A DNA stretch of 64,000 bases, taken from assembly GCA_964421975.1 (NCBI GenBank), contig CAYQZL010000004.1:818-64817 (forward strand), written 5' to 3'. The notes beneath the pieces were generated by a model, which was given only the letters and a program-made list of their open reading frames with translations, made no database searches and was not told the origin of the DNA. The stretch's first letter is position 1, and each line of letters starts with the position of its first letter. A program made the translations under genes and the position numbers. Source of the stretch: an uncultured Rikenellaceae bacterium (GTDB lineage Bacteria > Bacteroidota > Bacteroidia > Bacteroidales > VadinHA17). Positions 7,022-58,042 of this stretch are shown here, piece after piece.

Positions 7022-8296
7022 TTACTTAAATGTGATTTTATATATATCGTAATTTCCGGAACCTTCTGCTTCCTTGAAGATGGCATGATAACCTGACCTG
7101 CCATTTGCCGCAGGCATAAAGAAAATGTTGTCGTCCGGGGTATTAAGAGGATAACCGAGGTTTACAGGTTTGCTCCAGATATTGTTTGTCTGGAGCTCGG
7201 ATCTGAACAGATCATAACCTCCGATTGTAATATGTCCCTGTGAACTGAAGAACAATGTTTTTCCGTTATTTATCAGAAAGGCACGGTCTTCGTTAAGTTC
7301 TGTGTTGATCTCCGGTCCGAGGTTGACAGCAGGGCCCCAGTCACCGTTTATTTTCTTTGATACATACAGGTCAAGTCCTCCGTATCCGCCAGGGCGATCA
7401 GAAGAGAAGATCAGTTTTTCACCATCCTCTGTCATGAAACCATGTGATTCCCAGTATCTGGTGTTTATATTCCTGTTAAGCATTCTGCAGGCACTCCATG
7501 CTGTTCCGTCGAATGTACTGGAATATATGTCGCTGTTAAAGTCGTCATCTCTTGAAAGAAACAACATCTTGCCGTCAGAAGAGAGGCAAGAGATATACAT
7601 GTCACCATCTGACATCAGTTCGGGTGTTATATTGACCGGAGGGCTCCATCTGCCTCCGTTGAGCCGGGATACCATAACAGCATCATAGAACTTGAGTGAT
7701 ACCATGAATGCAAAGGTCCTGCCATCAGATGAAATGACAGGATTGAAATTAGCTTTCTCATCATTGAACAGGATTCCGAGATTCTCTTCAATATATGAGA
7801 CAGGTTTATTTATTAGTTCACCGGCAGTGACACATGATCTGATGTGCTGTTCAACGATGGAACGGTTCTCATGATCTTCCTCAAGGAGGGTACTCCCGAA
7901 CCTGACAAAAGCATCTTCCGCTTTATCAAACTGGTAGTTTATCAGATAGGCACATCCGAGATCATAAAGAGCATCGTATGGTGCTTCCTTCTGGGTAATG
8001 GTTCCCTCTTTGTGACTTGCAGAAAGAAACTTTACAGCGGCTTCAAGATATTCTACAGCCAGATTCTTTTTCCCTGTAATATTAAGATAGCAGGCTCCTG
8101 TTCTGTAAGCAATATTTGAATTGTCGGGGATCTTTTCATAGAGCTCAAGATAAATGGGAAGTGCGTCCTGGTAATCACCGCTCATGAAAAAATATTCAGC
8201 TTCGATGAAGCTGTCCTGAAGTGAATTTGTTGCCTGAGGGAACAGAATTAACGGAAAGAATACCCAAAACAAGGCGGATATTATTCTGCGGCGCAT
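7022..8296 (-). CDS. Envelope protein P3: TPR + PD40 propeller only (paralog 3 of 4)
   Basis: The track ORF 7022..8317 begins at a TTG. The ATG at 8296 gives the signal peptide MRRRIISALFWVFFPLILF. TPR core IPDNSNIAYRTGACYLNI. Propeller blade ESHGFMTEDGEKLIFSSDRPGGYGGLDLYVS. The protein ends directly after the propeller. Confidence 0.75.
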   Translation of the reverse strand: MRRRIISALFWVFFPLILFPQATNSLQDSFIEAEYFFMSGDYQDALPIYLELYEKIPDNSNIAYRTGACYLNITGKKNLAVEYLEAAVKFLSASHKEGTITQKEAPYDALYDLGCAYLINYQFDKAEDAFVRFGSTLLEEDHENRSIVEQHIRSCVTAGELINKPVSYIEENLGILFNDEKANFNPVISSDGRTFAFMVSLKFYDAVMVSRLNGGRWSPPVNITPELMSDGDMYISCLSSDGKMLFLSRDDDFNSDIYSSTFDGTAWSACRMLNRNINTRYWESHGFMTEDGEKLIFSSDRPGGYGGLDLYVSKKINGDWGPAVNLGPEINTELNEDRAFLINNGKTLFFSSQGHITIGGYDLFRSELQTNNIWSKPVNLGYPLNTPDDNIFFMPAANGRSGYHAIFKEAEGSGNYDIYKITFK

Positions 8297-15783: not shown

Positions 15784-16593
15784 TCATCTGATACGCATTC
15801 CGGGCCTGTTTCCTCCAAGGCTCTGTGAATTGGTATTCACTCCCGTTTCCTCCGTTTCCTCTTCATCAAGAGGTTCTTCGGGCTCTTCCTTTTTAACGGC
15901 CACCCGGATTTTCTTATAGGGAATATTCCATGAAATAAAATAACCGGCTCCGACACTTACCGATTCTCCTGATCCGTATCCCGGGAAGTAGAGCGGCCTG
16001 ATATCTTTTTTTGAACCGGGCCAGATCAGTTTCCTCAGACTAATGGACCAGCCTATGCTGAAATTCCTGAACAGTTCCGCCCTGAAACCGGGAGATAATT
16101 CTATGAAATGCGCCCAGCTTTTGGTTGATTCAATTGAGGATTGTGTTATTCCCCAGTAGTTTTCATGAGTGAATGAGGGTGTGGCTGAAGTGAAATTGCT
16201 TATACCATATCTTATACCTGTACCAGCCCAGTATCTGCCTGCAGAAACTTCAGGTTTCAGAATATTGAGATCAATACCTGCCTTTACAAAAAATCCCCTG
16301 CTCAGATAATCATAATTATACTGGGAATAATTGTAATCGGAATACCCTGCACCAAAATATAATGAGGATGTCTCATTTAAATCGGTGGAAATATATGCTT
16401 CAGCATTGAAGATATTCTTATCTGTAAACCAGATAACCGGTCCGGCTATATCAATACCTGTCCTTATCTTGAGAGCAATGTCCACACTGTCCGGTTCCTC
16501 AGTGCTACCGCCCGGCTGTGAATAGGCATAGCCCGACATTAGAATTGCAAAAAGAAGAAGATCAGTAATATATAAAAATGTTCGGTGCATCAA
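15784..16593 (-). CDS. Hypothetical outer-membrane beta-barrel-like protein with an acidic C-terminal tail
   Basis: 269 aa with a signal peptide (LLLFAILMSGYAYSQ). Alternating aromatic/Gly-rich strands, then KKEEPEEPLDEEETEE. Overlaps the upstream lipoprotein gene by 32 nt. Confidence 0.45.
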   Translation of the reverse strand: MMHRTFLYITDLLLFAILMSGYAYSQPGGSTEEPDSVDIALKIRTGIDIAGPVIWFTDKNIFNAEAYISTDLNETSSLYFGAGYSDYNYSQYNYDYLSRGFFVKAGIDLNILKPEVSAGRYWAGTGIRYGISNFTSATPSFTHENYWGITQSSIESTKSWAHFIELSPGFRAELFRNFSIGWSISLRKLIWPGSKKDIRPLYFPGYGSGESVSVGAGYFISWNIPYKKIRVAVKKEEPEEPLDEEETEETGVNTNSQSLGGNRPGMRIR

Positions 16594-17026
16594 GGGTTGT
16601 TATAGTTCTGAGTTTGATCTGAATGGTGTCAATAATATTTCTGGTTGAAACCACTGAATCGAGACCGTGGTAATATGTATATCCGCATTCTTTTGAGATA
16701 AGATGAACAAAAGTGGAGTAGGCGAATGAAATTGTGTCATTCACTCCGTTGATCCTTATTACAAAACCGCATCTGCGTGCTGAAGCATCAAGTGGTATCA
16801 GTGCGGATTTGACACCTTGTGTTTTTTTGTATCTGGCTGTATCCTTCCCGATACCATAAAGGGTAAGACTGTCAGGTGCAAGGGGTTTGCCTGTGGAGTT
16901 AAGGTAAAATGATGCTTTCAGAAAAGCATTGGTTTCTTCAAAACATGATCCGGGTGTACAGGCAACAGAGAGTGCAAGAACACATAAAATAAAAAAACCC
17001 GGAATTATATTAAAAAAACTTCTCAT
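16562..17026 (-). CDS. Hypothetical small lipoprotein
   Basis: 154 aa. The signal peptide ends in LSVAC (lipobox-like). Co-directional with and overlapping the barrel gene. Confidence 0.45.
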   Translation of the reverse strand: MRSFFNIIPGFFILCVLALSVACTPGSCFEETNAFLKASFYLNSTGKPLAPDSLTLYGIGKDTARYKKTQGVKSALIPLDASARRCGFVIRINGVNDTISFAYSTFVHLISKECGYTYYHGLDSVVSTRNIIDTIQIKLRTITTLDAPNIFIYY

Positions 17027-17047
17027 GACCTTCTGTTACCGAAGCCT

Positions 17048-17055
17048 CAAAAGTA
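17048..17055 (-). promoter_or_regulatory. Candidate -7 box (TACTTTTG on the minus strand) for the lipoprotein/barrel pair
   Basis: The + strand reads CAAAAGTA, whose reverse complement is TAnnTTTG. It lies 22 nt upstream of the ATG at 17026. Confidence 0.4.
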
Positions 17056-17087
17056 TAAAAAATCCTTCTTACACCTCTCTCTGCCGC

Positions 17088-17171
17088 TCACTTCTTTCCT
17101 CCCCATCTCTCACCGCTCACCTCTCATCTCTCATCTCTCATCGCTAATCTCTCACCCCTCACTCCTCACCC
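17088..17171. repeat. Degenerate CTCACCT/CTCATCT heptamer tract (left flank of the nested inverted-repeat element)
   Basis: The sequence reads ctcaccgctcacctctcatctctcatctctcatcgctaatctctcacccctcactcctcacc. Confidence 0.85.
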
Positions 17172-17582
17172 CATAGCCGTCAACATAAGCAATATTTTAG
17201 TTACAATAACAACTGTAATTATCTGGATTTTAACTAAATAAATTTCCCCTCCTTTCAAAGGAGGGGTGGCCGGGATTACTAATTTTGAAGCGTTTACAAT
17301 TGTCCTTTCCCCGGCCGGGGTGGTTGATCTTTGTTGTCTTCTGAACTTGCTTCCCTCAGGATTTTTTGACTTTAATTGATTCCATAAAGCGGATTCTGGA
17401 GAAGTGGAATTATTTCTCAGAATTTAATTAACCACCCCGGCCAGACAATATAAATTTCTGCAAGTCCGACGATTTCTGCGTCTGGCCACCCCTCCTTGAA
17501 AAAAGGAGGGGAAATGTATGTTCGTATATACCTCTTAATTACAGTAGTTTTCGTTGTTGATATACTTTAGTTGACGGCTATG
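17172..17582. repeat. Nested inverted-repeat element of about 411 bp, non-coding (MITE-like, inverton-like or structured RNA)
   Basis: Perfect 13-bp termini: catagccgtcaac at 17172-17184 and gttgacggctatg at 17570-17582. Two collinear inner arm pairs are present. The first is atttcccctcctttcaaaggaggggtggccgg (17242-17273) against ctggccacccctccttgaaaaaaggaggggaaat (17482-17515). The second is ccccggccggggtggtt (17310-17326) against ttaaccaccccggccag (17428-17444). No ORF of 60 aa or more lies inside. Confidence 0.8.
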
Positions 17583-17668
17583 CTCCTCAGCACTCGACAC
17601 TCACCACTCACCTCTCACCTCTCACCTCTCACCGCTCACCTCTCACCGCTCACCTCTCACCTCTCACC
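17583..17668. repeat. CTCACCT/GCTCACC heptamer tract (right flank), in the same orientation as the left tract
   Basis: The sequence reads cactcaccactcacctctcacctctcacctctcaccgctcacctctcaccgctcacctctcacctctcacc. It contains the alaS stop codon and the last codons of alaS. Confidence 0.85.
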
Positions 17669-20299
17669 TATGTGTTCCCTGACATATTTTTCAGCTCTCA
17701 TTATGGCATTCTGAATACCTCCGGGATTCTTACCACCGGCAGTTGCGAGGAAAGGCTGACCACCACCTCCGCCGTTTATTTCACCTGCAATTTCCCGGAT
17801 GATATCTGTGGCGCTCAGATCCTTTTCCTTTACCAGACGGTCACTGACCATGACAATCAGACTGGCTTTATCTCCGATCGGGGACCCAAGTACCGCGATA
17901 CTGTCAGCGGGTATTTTCCTTAATTCAAAAGCAATTGATTTTAGGGTTTCGGCAGAATCAGTTTCTATCTGACCACTTATAAATTTGAAATCATTAATTT
18001 GCCGGGCTTTTTCAATAAGATCCCTGATGATATCTCCGGCAATCCGGGATTTATATTTTTCGACCGTTTTCCTGAGAGATGCATTTTCAGTTAAAAGCTT
18101 TTCCACGCTTTCCCTGGCGCTCCCGGTGCTCTTAAGAAGTGATGCAATATCTTCAAGTTCCGATATCTTTTCATTCACATATTCGTCGGCTTCGGGTCCT
18201 GTTACCGCTTCTATCCTTCTGACTCCGGCTGCAATGGCGCTTTCGGATATTATTTTGATAAGTCCGATACCGGATGTTGATTCGACATGAGTGCCTCCGC
18301 ACAGTTCAACTGAATCTCCGAAGCGGACCACTCTTACCGTATCACCGTATTTTTCCCCGAAAAGTGCCATAGCTCCCATGGAAAGAGCTTCTTTCAGCGG
18401 TATGTTTTCAGTCACCTCTTTTGTGAAATTCTCCCTTACCAGTTGGTTGGCAATGCTTTCAACCGCGAGTATCTCTTCCCTGGTGAGTTTGCTGAAATGG
18501 CTGAAATCGAACCTTAGCCGGCCGGGTGTTACGAGTGAACCTTTCTGTTCAACATGTGATCCCAGGACTTTTCTCAGTGCATAATGAAGAAGGTGGGTGG
18601 CAGTATGGTTATTGGCTGCCATTTTACGCTTAGCCTCATCAACGGTTGCAGTGAATCCTGCATCGGGGTGGGAGGGAGCTTTCTTTGTGAGATGTATTAT
18701 CAGATCATTCTCCTTTATTGTATCATTGATCTCAATTTTTTCGAATTCCGAGACAATAATACCTGTATCGCCTGCCTGTCCGCCTGATTCTGCATAAAAA
18801 GGTGTTCTGTCGAATACAAGCTGGCATATCTCCTTTCCTTTGGTTTTTACAACACGGTATTTTGTAATCAGGATATTATCCACCGTCCTGTCATATCCCG
18901 TAAATACCGTATCATCGTTTTCCCTTATTATTATCCAGTCGCCTGCATCCAGTATGCCGTCTGCTCTCGACCGGTCTTTCTGATTCTTCATTTCTGTTTC
19001 GAATCCTTCTGTATCCAGAGTCATGCCATTCTCTTTCAGAATAAGCTGGGTCAGGTCAGCGGGAAATCCATAGGTATCGTAGAGCTCAAAAGCGATTTTC
19101 CCTGACAGGATACTTTCATTCTTCTCCTTAAGATCAGAGATCATCTTATCTATCATCCTGAGGCCTTTCCCCAGGGTTTTTAGAAAAGCTGTTTCTTCTT
19201 CAAAGATTATTTTAGATATCTGTTCTCCTGAAGATTTCAGTTCAGGATACTGATCTCCCATTACTGAAGCAAGTGCGGGGACAAGCTTATACATGAATGG
19301 TTCATCAGTGCCGAGGTAGTTATAAGCATACCTTACGGCTCTCCTGAGTATCCTGCGTATTACATATCCGGCTTTATTATTGGATGGAAGCTGCCCGTCG
19401 GCTATTGAAAATGAGACTGCCCTGAGATGATCCGCTATAACCCTCATGGCAGTATCCTGTTCCTCGTTCCTGCCATATTCCTTGCCGGTGAGGACACATA
19501 TTTCCTTAATTACGGACTGAAAAATATCTGTATCATAATTTGATTTTTTCCCCTGAACGACCATGCACAGTCTTTCAAAGCCCATACCCGTATCAACATG
19601 CCTGTCGGGCAACAGTTCAAGTGATCCGTCGGCTTTGCGTTTATACTGAATAAATACAAGGTTCCATACTTCTATTACCAGGGGATGTCCTTTATTAACA
19701 AGAGTGTGTCCGGGTATCTTTTTTCTTTCGGAGTCATCACGTATGTCCACATGGATCTCGGAGCATGGGCCACAGGGGCCGGTATCTCCCATCTCCCAGA
19801 AATTGTCTTTTTTCGATCCTTCAAGTATCCTGTCCGGATCTGCCTGAAAACACTTCTGCCACCAGCTGTATGCTTCATCATCACGCGGTACATTTTCTGA
19901 GGGACTTCCGGTAAAGATGGTTGCATACAGCCTGTCTGCCGGTATACCCAGTCTGCCGTTAAGGAATTCCCAGGCCCATTCTATGGCTTCCTTCTTGAAA
20001 TAATCGCCGAAAGACCAGTTCCCCAGCATCTCGAACATTGTATGATGATAAGTGTCATGTCCCACTTCTTCAAGATCGTTGTGCTTGCCTGAAACCCTGA
20101 GACATTTCTGTGAATCGGCAATCCTCCTGTACTTAGGCTGCATATTGCCCAGAAATATATCCTTGAACTGGTTCATTCCGGCATTTGTGAACATCAGAGT
20201 CGGATCATTCTTGATTACCATCGGGGCAGATGATACTATCTCATGTCCTTTTTCCCGGAAAAAGTCAAAGAATAACTGCCTCAGTTGCTGTGATTTCAT
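17657..20299 (-). CDS. alaS: Alanine--tRNA ligase
   Basis: FTNAGMNQFKD, editing-domain HTATHLLH, and C-terminal DHHA1-type GGGGGQP. The ATG at 20299 (MKSQQLRQLFFDFF) is preferred over the track start at 20332. Confidence 0.95.
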   Translation of the reverse strand: MKSQQLRQLFFDFFREKGHEIVSSAPMVIKNDPTLMFTNAGMNQFKDIFLGNMQPKYRRIADSQKCLRVSGKHNDLEEVGHDTYHHTMFEMLGNWSFGDYFKKEAIEWAWEFLNGRLGIPADRLYATIFTGSPSENVPRDDEAYSWWQKCFQADPDRILEGSKKDNFWEMGDTGPCGPCSEIHVDIRDDSERKKIPGHTLVNKGHPLVIEVWNLVFIQYKRKADGSLELLPDRHVDTGMGFERLCMVVQGKKSNYDTDIFQSVIKEICVLTGKEYGRNEEQDTAMRVIADHLRAVSFSIADGQLPSNNKAGYVIRRILRRAVRYAYNYLGTDEPFMYKLVPALASVMGDQYPELKSSGEQISKIIFEEETAFLKTLGKGLRMIDKMISDLKEKNESILSGKIAFELYDTYGFPADLTQLILKENGMTLDTEGFETEMKNQKDRSRADGILDAGDWIIIRENDDTVFTGYDRTVDNILITKYRVVKTKGKEICQLVFDRTPFYAESGGQAGDTGIIVSEFEKIEINDTIKENDLIIHLTKKAPSHPDAGFTATVDEAKRKMAANNHTATHLLHYALRKVLGSHVEQKGSLVTPGRLRFDFSHFSKLTREEILAVESIANQLVRENFTKEVTENIPLKEALSMGAMALFGEKYGDTVRVVRFGDSVELCGGTHVESTSGIGLIKIISESAIAAGVRRIEAVTGPEADEYVNEKISELEDIASLLKSTGSARESVEKLLTENASLRKTVEKYKSRIAGDIIRDLIEKARQINDFKFISGQIETDSAETLKSIAFELRKIPADSIAVLGSPIGDKASLIVMVSDRLVKEKDLSATDIIREIAGEINGGGGGQPFLATAGGKNPGGIQNAIMRAEKYVREHIGER

Positions 20300-25975: not shown

Positions 25976-25995
25976 TGTTGACCAGTCAATAAAAA

Positions 25996-26055
25996 ATATG
26001 TATTAAAATATGTATTAAAATATGTCTTTTAATATGTCTTTTAATACGTAGACGC
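25996..26055. repeat. 12-bp tandem repeat (atatgtattaaa x2, atatgtctttta x2, plus a degenerate fifth unit) upstream of hutU
   Basis: Read directly: units at 25996, 26008, 26020 and 26032, with a partial unit at 26044. Confidence 0.9.
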
Positions 26056-28111: not shown

Positions 28112-28148
28112 TAGAAAATTCTGATTTGGATGAGACTTTTATTAGTTA

Positions 28149-28239
28149 CACAGAGTTACACAGAGGGTTCACAGAGTTTCACAGAGTTTCAAAGTATTAA
28201 CCTCTGTGGCCCTCTGTGAATCCTCTGTGTAACTCTGTG
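28149..28239. repeat. 4+4 word-hairpin array: (CACAGAG)x4 in 10/11/10-bp register, a 15-nt loop, then (CTCTGTG)x4
   Basis: CACAGAG at 28149, 28159, 28170 and 28180. CTCTGTG at 28202, 28212, 28223 and 28233. The outer 17 bp pair perfectly (cacagagttacacagag with ctctgtgtaactctgtg). The array sits between the convergent hutU and ispF genes and abuts the ispF stop. Confidence 0.9.
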
Positions 28240-44730: not shown

Positions 44731-44780
44731 AAGAAAATATGGGATTGTTGGTATGGATGTTGAAAGTTAGTTATTTTGTA

Positions 44781-44825
44781 GTACTTAAAGTATTTAAAGT
44801 ACTTAGAGTACTTAGAGTACTTAGA
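44781..44825. repeat. 9-bp tandem repeat x5 (gtacttaaa, gtatttaaa, gtacttaga x3)
   Basis: Read directly from the sequence. Confidence 0.9.
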
Positions 44826-44870
44826 GTTTTTAACGTGGAACTCCGCTTTCGCCAGGGCTTAGGCTGGCAA

Positions 44871-44950
44871 ACACTGAAACACTGAAACACTGAAACTCTG
44901 AAACTCTGAAACACTGAAACTCTGAAACTCTGAAACACTGAAACTCTGAA
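44871..44950. repeat. 8-bp tandem repeat x10 (A = acactgaa, B = actctgaa, order AAABBABBAB), ending 10 nt before the folC ATG
   Basis: Read directly. An eleventh partial unit (acataatg) follows. Confidence 0.9.
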
Positions 44951-44960
44951 ACATAATGTA

Positions 44961-54661: not shown

Positions 54662-54783
54662 CGCGGCCTCTGTATAAGTTTATTATCAAAATATTCAGAC
54701 AAAACACAACAACTAAAGGCAATCCGGCTTTATATTTGGAGTTTTAAATTTCCCTCTGAATACCAATGGGAGCTTTAAAAAAC

Positions 54784-54880
54784 CTTTGTGTCCCTTTGTG
54801 TGTACTTTGTGTCCTTTGTGGTTATAAAGCATTGTTGTTTAACCACAAAGAGCACTAAGGAAATCACAAAGAGCACAATG
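54784..54880. repeat. 4+4 word-hairpin array, CACAAAG variant: (CTTTGTG)x4, a 17-nt loop, then CACAAAG/CACTAAG/CACAAAG/CACAATG
   Basis: CTTTGTG at 54784, 54794, 54805 and 54814. The inverted words are at 54844, 54853, 54865 and 54874. The inner 10-bp stem is perfect (ctttgtggtt with aaccacaaag). Confidence 0.9.
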
Positions 54881-57922: not shown

Positions 57923-58042
57923 CACAGAGATCCACAGAGGTTCACAGAGATCCACAGAGAATCGATTTACTAACTCTGTGGAACTCTGTGACTTTTTCAC
58001 CCACCGAAGCCTTGGCGCAGGTGGGCTCTGTGGGACTCAGTG
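57923..58042. repeat. 4+4 word-hairpin array (CACAGAG x4 at an exact 10-bp period) whose right arm is split by a 35-bp insert carrying its own hairpin
   Basis: CACAGAG at 57923, 57933, 57943 and 57953. CTCTGTG at 57974, 57984 and 58026, and CTCAGTG at 58036. The insert at 57991-58025 contains cccacc...ggtggg. Confidence 0.9.

Follow-up and report, generated by a model that had tools for sequence, protein, structure and literature searches.

Results

Gene content and repeat architecture of the alaS-DUF6452 spacer

The subject of this report is a nested inverted repeat of 411 bp (17172-17582) on contig CAYQZL010000004.1 of an uncultured Rikenellaceae bacterium (GenBank assembly GCA_964421975.1). 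Positions given without a locus label refer to the 64-kb stretch of this contig that we analyzed (the window), and our count of copies in the host genome covers these 64 kb. The element is located in the 630-nt spacer between alaS, the gene for alanine-tRNA ligase (17657..20299, minus strand; Pfam tRNA-synt_2c, tRNA_SAD and DHHA1), and its downstream neighbor, a DUF6452 gene (16562..17026, minus strand; recognized through Pfam and through synteny in loci L126 and L127). An earlier note on this DNA, made from the sequence, had offered three readings of the element: an insertion resembling a MITE (miniature inverted-repeat transposable element), an invertible promoter segment (inverton), or, lying downstream of alaS, a structured RNA or terminator complex.

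The anatomy described in that note was borne out by our inverted-repeat analysis. The perfect 13-bp terminus CATAGCCGTCAAC is present at 17172-17184 (plus strand) and at 17570-17582 (minus strand), with no third exact copy in the 64 kb. It encloses two further collinear arm pairs, an outer one of 19 nt (17253-17271/17484-17502, 89% complementary) and an inner one of 16 nt (17313-17328/17427-17442, 94% complementary), and the gap between the innermost arms amounts to 98 nt. Each arm contains a local CCCCTCC..GGAGGGG hairpin, at 17246-17266 and 17489-17511, respectively. The word CTCCTCA stands next to both termini (17162-17168 and 17583-17589), and both promoter-like TAnnTTTG boxes are likewise found, TAATTTTG at 17280-17287 on the plus strand and TACTTTTG at 17048-17055 on the minus strand.

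Aligned to each other, the two arms of the window element reveal conserved blocks with diverged spacers of similar length between them. The general order within an arm, read from the outside inwards, is the terminus CATAGCCGTCAACYTAAG, a spacer of about 50-60 nt, a first hairpin, H1 (CCCCTCCTT-loop-AAGGAGGGG), one T, a second hairpin, P2, and finally a GGGGTGGTT box. In the left arm (plus strand), the terminal inverted repeat CATAGCCGTCAACATAAGCA (17172..17191), which contains the exact 13-mer, is followed by H1 in the form CCCCTCCTT-TCA-AAGGAGGGG (17246..17266), by P2 (GGCCGGGA..TCCCCGGCC, 17268..17316) with a 35-nt loop that includes TAATTTTG, and by the GGGGTGGTT box (17317..17325). The right arm (minus strand) comprises the terminal inverted repeat CATAGCCGTCAACTAAAGTA (17563..17582), again with the exact 13-mer, H1 as CCCCTCCTT-GAAAA-AAGGAGGGG (17489..17511), found by local folding as well as by the inverted-repeat search, P2 (GGCCAGAC..GTCTGGCC, 17439..17487) and a GGGGTGGTT box (17430..17438), whose plus-strand reading, AACCACCCC, pairs with the box of the left arm. 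H1 and P2 fold locally within each arm alone, as they do in a short Chloracidobacterium unit. The self-complementary P2 hairpins of the two arms are of different conserved types: the loop of the left one (A type) is shared with loci L028, L032, L101 and others, and that of the right one (B type) with L021, L028, L101 and copies in the metagenome-assembled genome (MAG) MFD05674.bin.2.1. Since the two arms carry different conserved P2 loops, the window element is not a simple mirror duplication. As a whole, it folds into a long hairpin on both strands (z = -10.4 and -9.3 against dinucleotide shuffles), with a stability of -153 kcal/mol.

The heptamer spacer and related loci without the element

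Tracts of heptamers in the same orientation flank the element on both sides, as the earlier note had observed. The left, degenerate tract (CTCTCAC-like, 17104..17171) faces the DUF6452 gene and is detected by Tandem Repeats Finder (TRF) as an array at 17104-17170 with period 7, 9.1 copies and 80% matches. The right flank (17583..17669) faces alaS and consists of a candidate target duplication (17583-17592) followed by ten copies of CTCACCT (17600-17669; TRF period 7, 92% matches). The alaS stop codon (17657-17659) lies inside this right tract, together with the last codons of the gene. Read in the direction of alaS, the spacer is therefore composed of (AGGTGAG)x10, the element, and degenerate GTGAG heptamers.

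In the protein collection, the AlaS proteins closest to that of the window share 78-79% identity with it. Two corresponding loci, L126 and L127, have the same gene order as the window, namely alaS, DUF6452, DUF6048, an SSF gene on the opposite strand, and RecR. Their alaS-DUF6452 spacers are free of the element: that of L126 is 32 nt long and mostly made up of GGTGAGT TGTGAGT TATGAGT TGTGAGT, and that of L127 comprises 232 nt with several heptamer arrays. The empty sites that the earlier note had advised looking for thus exist, and because these relatives possess heptamer repeats only, the tract can be regarded as native to the lineage and the element as an insertion into it.

The heptamer array has also altered the adjacent gene. 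The window AlaS terminates in ..HIGER* and is thereby two residues longer than its relatives, which end in ..ITG* or ..IVG*; at 17657-17669 (minus strand), GGC TGA has been changed into GGT GAG AGG TGA. The original stop codon was consequently overwritten by the array, which means that a growing tandem repeat has eaten into the 3' end of a housekeeping gene. On the other side of the spacer, the TACTTTTG box and the DNA upstream of the DUF6452 start (17027-17075, minus strand) have no counterpart at L126 7638-7669 or L127 7860-7869; the DUF6452/DUF6048 pair may have gained its own promoter as the spacer expanded.

A structured repeat core dispersed over many phyla

The core of an arm consists of H1, P2 and the GGGGTGGTT tail. 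We scanned one genome per species with the exact pattern CCCCTCCTT N1-9 AAGGAGGGGTGGCC, which represents the left-arm H1 plus five bases (TGGCC), and found the core at no fewer than 120 loci of many phyla. Its hosts include Bacteroidota, Acidobacteriota, Verrucomicrobiota, Planctomycetota, Patescibacteria, Armatimonadota, Ignavibacteria and several proteobacterial MAGs. Across the loci retrieved, the H1 hairpin is represented by 158 instances, and GGCC..GGCC and GGGGTGG follow it in 155 of them, though both lie outside the search pattern. The matches often form plus/minus pairs 180-330 nt apart, frequently at contig ends, and single MAGs contain several copies, up to nine or more. Nine full copies in one MAG can be aligned from terminus to terminus, and similarity is lost outside of them.

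P2 is closed by GGCC..GGCC and has a variable extension, with an overall length of 11-28 nt in most phyla and of 44-54 nt in Bacteroidales. Its stem covaries: among 91 distinct units, pairing at positions 5-8 amounts to 76-98%, compared with 48-66% when the partners are shuffled, and GC, AT and CG pairs all occur. Units from Bacteroidota additionally possess the outer block CATAGCCGTCAAC(C/T)TAAG, situated 35-100 nt before H1. Two copies of the Bacteroidales type, L028 ("Cloacimonadota") and L227 ("Chloroflexota"), were found on short AT-rich contigs, and their phylum labels may be binning errors; phylum counts of the long-P2 subtype consequently need care. The copies with a short P2 that occur in GC-rich Acidobacteriota and other MAGs clearly stand apart from these.

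The 57 low-GC elements for which both flanks were available are all intergenic: 31 reside between co-directional, 18 (32%) between convergent and 8 between divergent genes. Bacterial repeats usually display such a pattern of tolerated sites. Within 1.5 kb of the 158 motif instances, the neighboring open reading frames (ORFs) belong only to housekeeping clusters or are spurious ORFs running through the element, and none is recurrent. Phage, plasmid and viral collections yielded no blastn matches, and a scan of IMG/VR returned four matches to the core and none to the terminus. At one locus of an Acidobacteriota MAG (L016, around 7300-7440), a short pair of cores is found in frame and free of stop codons inside the ORF of a P-type ATPase, directly after the DKTGTLT phosphorylation motif (..SSPPYEGGVAEGRGG..).

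Intact elements encode a DUF559 protein of which the window copy retains a remnant

Longer copies of the element, of about 680-735 bp, carry an intact ORF of 120-127 amino acids between their arms; in this intact form, two arms of about 155 bp are placed in inverted orientation around the gene. The recurrent central ORF matches DUF559 (PF04480) with an E-value of about 1e-34 and, more weakly, REase_MTES_1575. Proteins from intact sister elements score 117-120 bits against PF04480, for which the curated cut-off is 20.6. Among solved structures, the best match is 3hrl (E 1e-19), a Neisseria "endonuclease-like protein" with no function assigned, and DUF559 has been classed with Vsr and a group I intron homing endonuclease in clade 58 (PMC3424549).

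The link between gene and core is close. When one DUF559 protein was compared by phmmer with every stop-to-stop ORF of at least 30 amino acids in the retrieved loci, 30 of the 33 hits were located within about 260 nt of a core. Eight intact-like DUF559 ORFs stand next to cores, including those in Phycisphaerae, Pyrinomonadaceae, Chloracidobacterium and a gammaproteobacterial MAG, and 21 fragments inside elements represent the N-terminus, the middle or the C-terminus of the protein. Such coverage of different protein parts is the pattern expected from independent internal deletions. In the reverse direction, a search with the DUF559 protein of locus L107 found at least 6601 homologs, with 67-94% identity among the 120 matches listed, and most of these homologs are located on contigs of 0.5-2 kb. 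In each of three that were chosen regardless of their flanks (L227, L228-230 and L231), inverted cores enclose the gene; H1 precedes the ATG by about 105 nt, and no more than about 10 nt separate the tail from the stop codon.

The center of the window element belongs to this series. The minus strand of 17423-17331 encodes ILRNNSTSPESALWNQLKSKNPEGSKFRRQQ, which is identical at 22 of 31 positions to residues 18-48 of the L107 protein (BLASTP E 2e-13), and the 31 retained residues are also recognized as DUF559 by phmmer (E 1.2e-6). As nothing but residues 18-48 of the protein is encoded there, the window copy is a deletion derivative. Locus L101 (2572-2960), which stems from another Bacteroidales MAG and has unrelated neighboring genes, shares this center and its deletion, and it follows that the deleted form has itself multiplied.

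Termini and flanking direct repeats

The consensus of 69 termini, CATAGCCGTCAACCTAAGGATT, is strong at positions 1-12 and 15-18 and weak at positions 13-14. It agrees at all eight specified positions with CAT-------AA--TAA---, the end signature of the IS231 subgroup within the IS4 family of insertion sequences (Table 1, PMC2266710). Among the individual ends, 33 of 69 match all eight positions; in the window, the left end, which also fits the family consensus, matches eight and the right end seven. Members of the IS231 subgroup generate direct repeats of 10-12 bp and are known for cassettes in which genes other than a transposase gene are placed between IS231 ends (PMC2266710).

Candidate target duplications of about 9-10 bp are visible beside a subset of the elements. 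In the window, the anchored flanks CTCCTCACCC (17162-17171) and CTCCTCAGCA (17583-17592) are identical at 8 of 10 positions and include the CTCCTCA word. Anchored direct matches of at least 7 out of 10 positions were detected in eight elements, a number reached by none of 5000 permutations (mean 1.9). The clearest case is L231, whose flanks GCATGCAAGG and GCATGCAAGA agree at 9 of 10 positions.

Short tandem arrays in the window and elsewhere

Heptamer arrays are not restricted to the alaS spacer. Period 7 dominates the short intergenic tandem arrays of several phyla, with 70 of 131 arrays of at least three copies, compared with 9 arrays of period 6 and 18 of period 8, and the sequence of the unit varies from array to array. 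The window contains such arrays at 17107-17170, 17600-17669, 25993-26037, 28144-28191, 44780-44827, 44869-44953, 54783-54820 and 57923-57960. In the spacer of L127 (7680-7770), (CGGTAAT)x4 is directly followed by (ACCGAAT/ACTGAAT)x8; the units are near reverse complements of each other, and the two arrays consequently form a hairpin. A specific association between elements and tandem repeats is not supported: arrays are three-fold denser near elements than over whole loci, yet this density does not exceed the intergenic expectation.

Discussion

Our data lend themselves to a coherent view of this locus. The segment 17172-17582 is very probably a non-autonomous, internally deleted MITE that belongs to a family of small mobile DUF559 cassettes, widespread among uncultured bacteria of the environment, and was inserted into a heptamer spacer. 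The first reading of the earlier note, a MITE-like insertion, has thereby essentially held up, given the multi-copy family, the relatives with heptamers only, and the 8/10 direct repeat; the DUF559 remnant, the two P2 types and the cross-phylum core had escaped it. In the sequence of events that we envisage, a full cassette would have lost all DUF559 codons except 18-48, and the deleted form would have been copied onward to other loci and genomes. One such copy would then have inserted between alaS and the DUF6452-DUF6048 pair, splitting the heptamer repeats and leaving behind the candidate target duplication of about 10 bp, CTCCTCACCC / CTCCTCAGCA.

How the cassettes move we infer from their ends. 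Mobilization in trans by a DDE transposase of the IS4 family is the most likely route, one that we propose tentatively, and it might proceed by cut-and-paste or copy movement in a manner similar to that of the mobile insertion cassettes (MICs) of IS231. Along this route, the DUF559 nuclease would be cargo, or else a helper acting on the hairpins rich in GGCC/CCGG.

Several observations weigh against this view of the element and its movement. Within the 64 kb the host has a single copy. The empty-site relatives are distant (78-79% AlaS identity) and could in principle have lost the element; a G-rich stretch in the L127 spacer, GGAGGGGTTGGGGGTGGGT, could be a relic of an element core. Both flanks in the window have period 7, which renders an 8/10 match less improbable than it would be in unique DNA. 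The flanks of L088, L095 and L038b extend the inverted repeat outward and lack a direct repeat, and many other flanks are mini-palindromes of a C-run, a loop and a G-run, in which direct and inverted repeats are hard to separate. The cores can flank a DUF559 gene in direct orientation as well (L050). Furthermore, the 13-mer terminus is confined to Bacteroidota, which the core and the gene are not; with the 13-mer absent and cores in direct orientation outside this phylum, ends of the IS4 type cannot explain the whole family. Finally, no transposase with these termini, i.e., a cognate DDE enzyme with a YREK motif and the same ends, was found in about 1.3 Mb of retrieved loci or in viral contigs, a search that did not cover the large collections.

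The alternative that fares best is that the DUF559 nuclease itself drives the element, serving as a homing-type or nicking endonuclease on the H1/P2/GGGGTGG arms or on its targets, with host repair copying the cassette and intact copies mobilizing in trans those that lack the ORF. This would account for a core and a gene that travel together across phyla even without the Bacteroidota 13-mer termini, and for the abundance of intact ORFs among the large set of homologs (at least 6601, the 120 listed being 67-94% identical). Between the arms no further enzyme gene was found, and homing endonucleases with Vsr-like folds are on record (I-Bth0305I, PMC3239194; clade 58, PMC3424549). We nevertheless consider it unlikely that the nuclease is the driving force. 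Strand-transfer activity is not known for a hydrolytic PD-(D/E)xK nuclease of 120 amino acids, and the termini bear a specific DDE-family signature. Homing, moreover, requires homologous flanks, and both the dispersal to unrelated intergenic sites and the direct repeats of about 10 bp are left unexplained by it.

A bolder form of this idea deserves to be spelled out. The DUF559 gene and its double-hairpin arms could form a new, as yet undescribed kind of selfish unit that is sufficient by itself, a proposal that we view as doubtful. The 120-amino-acid nuclease would then act on its own GGCC/CCGG-rich hairpins, nicking them to start copying, or it would bias the repair of T:G mismatches and thereby hold the arm sequence constant. 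Either action would lead to what is seen, a 45-nt core near-unchanged from Bacteroidota to Acidobacteriota, Planctomycetota, Verrucomicrobiota, Patescibacteria and Proteobacteria. If this were true, many "solitary Vsr-like" DUF559 genes would be mobile elements, not repair genes.

Movement by a transposase in trans and drive by the nuclease both treat the element as mobile DNA. The third reading of the earlier note, in which alaS is followed by a structured RNA or a terminator complex, appears very unlikely to us. The folds are very stable on both strands, P2 covaries, the element is positioned at a 3' end, and convergent gene contexts are frequent in the family. Strand symmetry is, however, given by any inverted repeat, the relatives L126 and L127 do without the element, and its presence at hundreds of unrelated loci indicates a repeat and not a locus-specific regulator. 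A scan with the covariance models of Rfam 15 returned no relevant match, neither for the window region (E up to 10) nor for eight loci from other phyla (E up to 1). We also discarded H1 as an intrinsic terminator: T residues precede it in one reading and A residues follow it in the other, and a 3' run of T's is found in neither. The hairpin between alaS and the next operon may nonetheless block read-through, which the 32-nt spacer of the relative would allow.

Even less credence can be given to a palindromic repeat of the REPIN/BIME type (repetitive extragenic palindromic sequences, REPs, as inverted doublets or as bacterial interspersed mosaic elements) moved by a REP-associated tyrosine transposase (RAYT), an enzyme of the HUH, Y1 class. 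The family does resemble such repeats in its two inverted hairpin-bearing units, covarying stems and many copies; in L018 and L003, Y1_Tnp genes are found no more than about 300 nt from a unit, and RAYT subclasses with atypical structures have been described from Bacteroidetes (PMC6006769). Promising as this neighborhood looked, RAYT as the mobilizer is largely refuted: the core occurs in none of 80 metagenome loci (294 kb) that encode the Y1 family of the L003/L018 type. There is no recurrent Y1 ORF near the 158 motif instances, no foot of the GTAG/CGTC type beside H1/P2, and no match in published REP tables; the Y1 gene of L042 is flanked by unrelated REPs, and flanking direct repeats do not fit HUH transposition.

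The loci with Y1 genes merit a remark of their own. In a Chloracidobacterium MAG (L042, 1300-2370), an IS200-like/RAYT-like Y1_Tnp gene stands amid arrays of the palindromes GACCGCGTAGCGGTC and CCGTGGGTTTCAACCCACGG, and this locus is a REPtron unrelated to the DUF559 cassette family. Y1 genes with a YxKNQxEHH motif (subclass 1.2, PMC6006769) are found near units or near lone 13-mer termini in L003 (5818-6309), L018 (2-313) and L133. The one in L003 is bracketed by a direct repeat with TTTATACACATCT, a word that also occurs outside the termini in L088 and L040.

A further candidate, a 498-amino-acid transposase of the IS1380 family between the arms of L053, was rejected as the mark of a parent element. 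Exact (A)CCTAAATTGAGCGATT ends with a 5-bp TATTA duplication enclose it inside the element center (L053, about 375-2120; NF033539, 202 bits), and 18 loci of its relatives have these ends and no arms; the ends and the duplication identify the transposase as a nested, unrelated insertion. CTATTA precedes several sister copies of this insertion sequence, which suggests that it has a target preference.

The least probable of the readings, an inverton controlling the DUF6452/DUF6048 pair, would draw on the inverted repeats that bracket about 385 bp with one TAnnTTTG match, and on a contig from another sample that ends 2 nt past the left 13-mer, but the element is a copy of a dispersed family beside unrelated genes, its interior is a decayed nuclease gene, its repeat is a 155-nt structured arm and not a short recombinase site, the TA of the TAATTTTG box is not conserved, with sister copies lacking TAnnTTTG, the pair already has its own box at 17048-17055, and a contig break, here 2 nt beyond the point where orientations would diverge, is equally expected for a repeat. 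The contig in question (L001, 1-16; Logan SRR27676556, an independent sample) possesses the identical DUF6452 gene and left heptamer tract, and its end is compatible with a break of the assembly at a repeat.

The 630-bp "non-coding gap" is accordingly to be seen as a native heptamer-repeat spacer that contains a dead mobile element, and not as a regulatory switch. Beside alaS the element is probably inert, except that it is likely to place a very stable hairpin before the downstream operon. The window copy is an ordinary dead element, and the interest lies in its family. This family ties the very common DUF559, with its thousands of homologs on contigs that often break at the flanks, to hairpin arms and MITE-like offspring in many phyla, and it accounts for one source of breaks in the assembly of environmental MAGs. 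The arms provide a concrete substrate for testing what DUF559 nucleases cut or bind. If the mobilizing transposase were found, mobile insertion cassettes of the IS231 type would extend far beyond the Bacillus cereus group. Our literature searches, which were incomplete in coverage and thus yield absence of evidence only, turned up no account of DUF559 cassettes whose double-hairpin arms are conserved, nor of miniature derivatives of such cassettes; queries with sequence strings of the family and for MITE/REPIN in Bacteroidales gave none either.

Comparison with known systems

The heptamer tracts around the element invite comparison with the short tandemly repeated repetitive (STRR) sequences of cyanobacteria, which are heptanucleotide tandem repeats. 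The window tracts are likewise intergenic 7-bp arrays with array-specific unit sequences; they occur in another phylum, and a functional or mechanistic tie to the element finds no support in the density of arrays near elements. The in-frame location of the core pair in the P-type ATPase ORF of L016 resembles that of the Rickettsia palindromic elements.

In its protein, the family is related to Vsr-like homing endonuclease genes (the I-Bth0305I/EDxHD family of "fractured genes"; PMC3239194, PMC2677866) and to solitary Vsr-like/DUF559 genes such as that of VsrA from Caulobacter (PMC12907096). All of these encode small stand-alone nucleases of the Vsr/DUF559 clade, are unlinked to a methyltransferase gene, and have a patchy distribution that suggests horizontal transfer. 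The known representatives, however, are located inside introns or inteins, or they are chromosomal genes of the ordinary kind, and none has been described with hairpin arms, terminal repeats or MITE-like derivatives.

With REP, BIME and REPIN sequences the family has in common that palindromic units are found singly, in mosaics, or as inverted doublets that form long hairpins, that stems are kept by compensatory change, and that a genome may contain tens of copies or more. It differs from them in its lack of association with Y1 genes (0 of 80 loci) and of a tetranucleotide foot, in units that are about five times longer, in the flanking direct repeats and in the protein gene of full copies.

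A parallel in the termini is offered by MIC231 of the IS231 subgroup in the IS4 family (Chen et al., 1999; De Palmenaer et al., 2004, both as cited in PMC2266710). In these cassettes, ends of the type CAT-------AA--TAA--- bracket a gene that does not encode a transposase, the direct repeats measure about 10-12 bp, and mobilization in trans is presumed. The IS231 subgroup is reported almost only from the Bacillus cereus group (PMC2266710), whereas the hosts here are uncultured Bacteroidales, with no cognate IS231-like transposase in the retrieved loci or viral contigs. The subterminal double hairpin and the DUF559 cargo are particular to the DUF559 cassettes and are not features of MIC231.

The most fitting general category is that of the bacterial MITEs. 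Like these, the element is short, non-coding, multi-copy and intergenic, with terminal inverted repeats and, in a subset of copies, flanking direct repeats, and the family is derived by internal deletion, with copies that keep different pieces of the gene. By most criteria the element is thus a MITE. What sets it apart is that its parent encodes a Vsr-like nuclease of 120 amino acids instead of a transposase, and that what serves as its "terminal repeat" is a structured arm of 155 nt with a pair of conserved hairpins, the inner part of which is shared across phyla.

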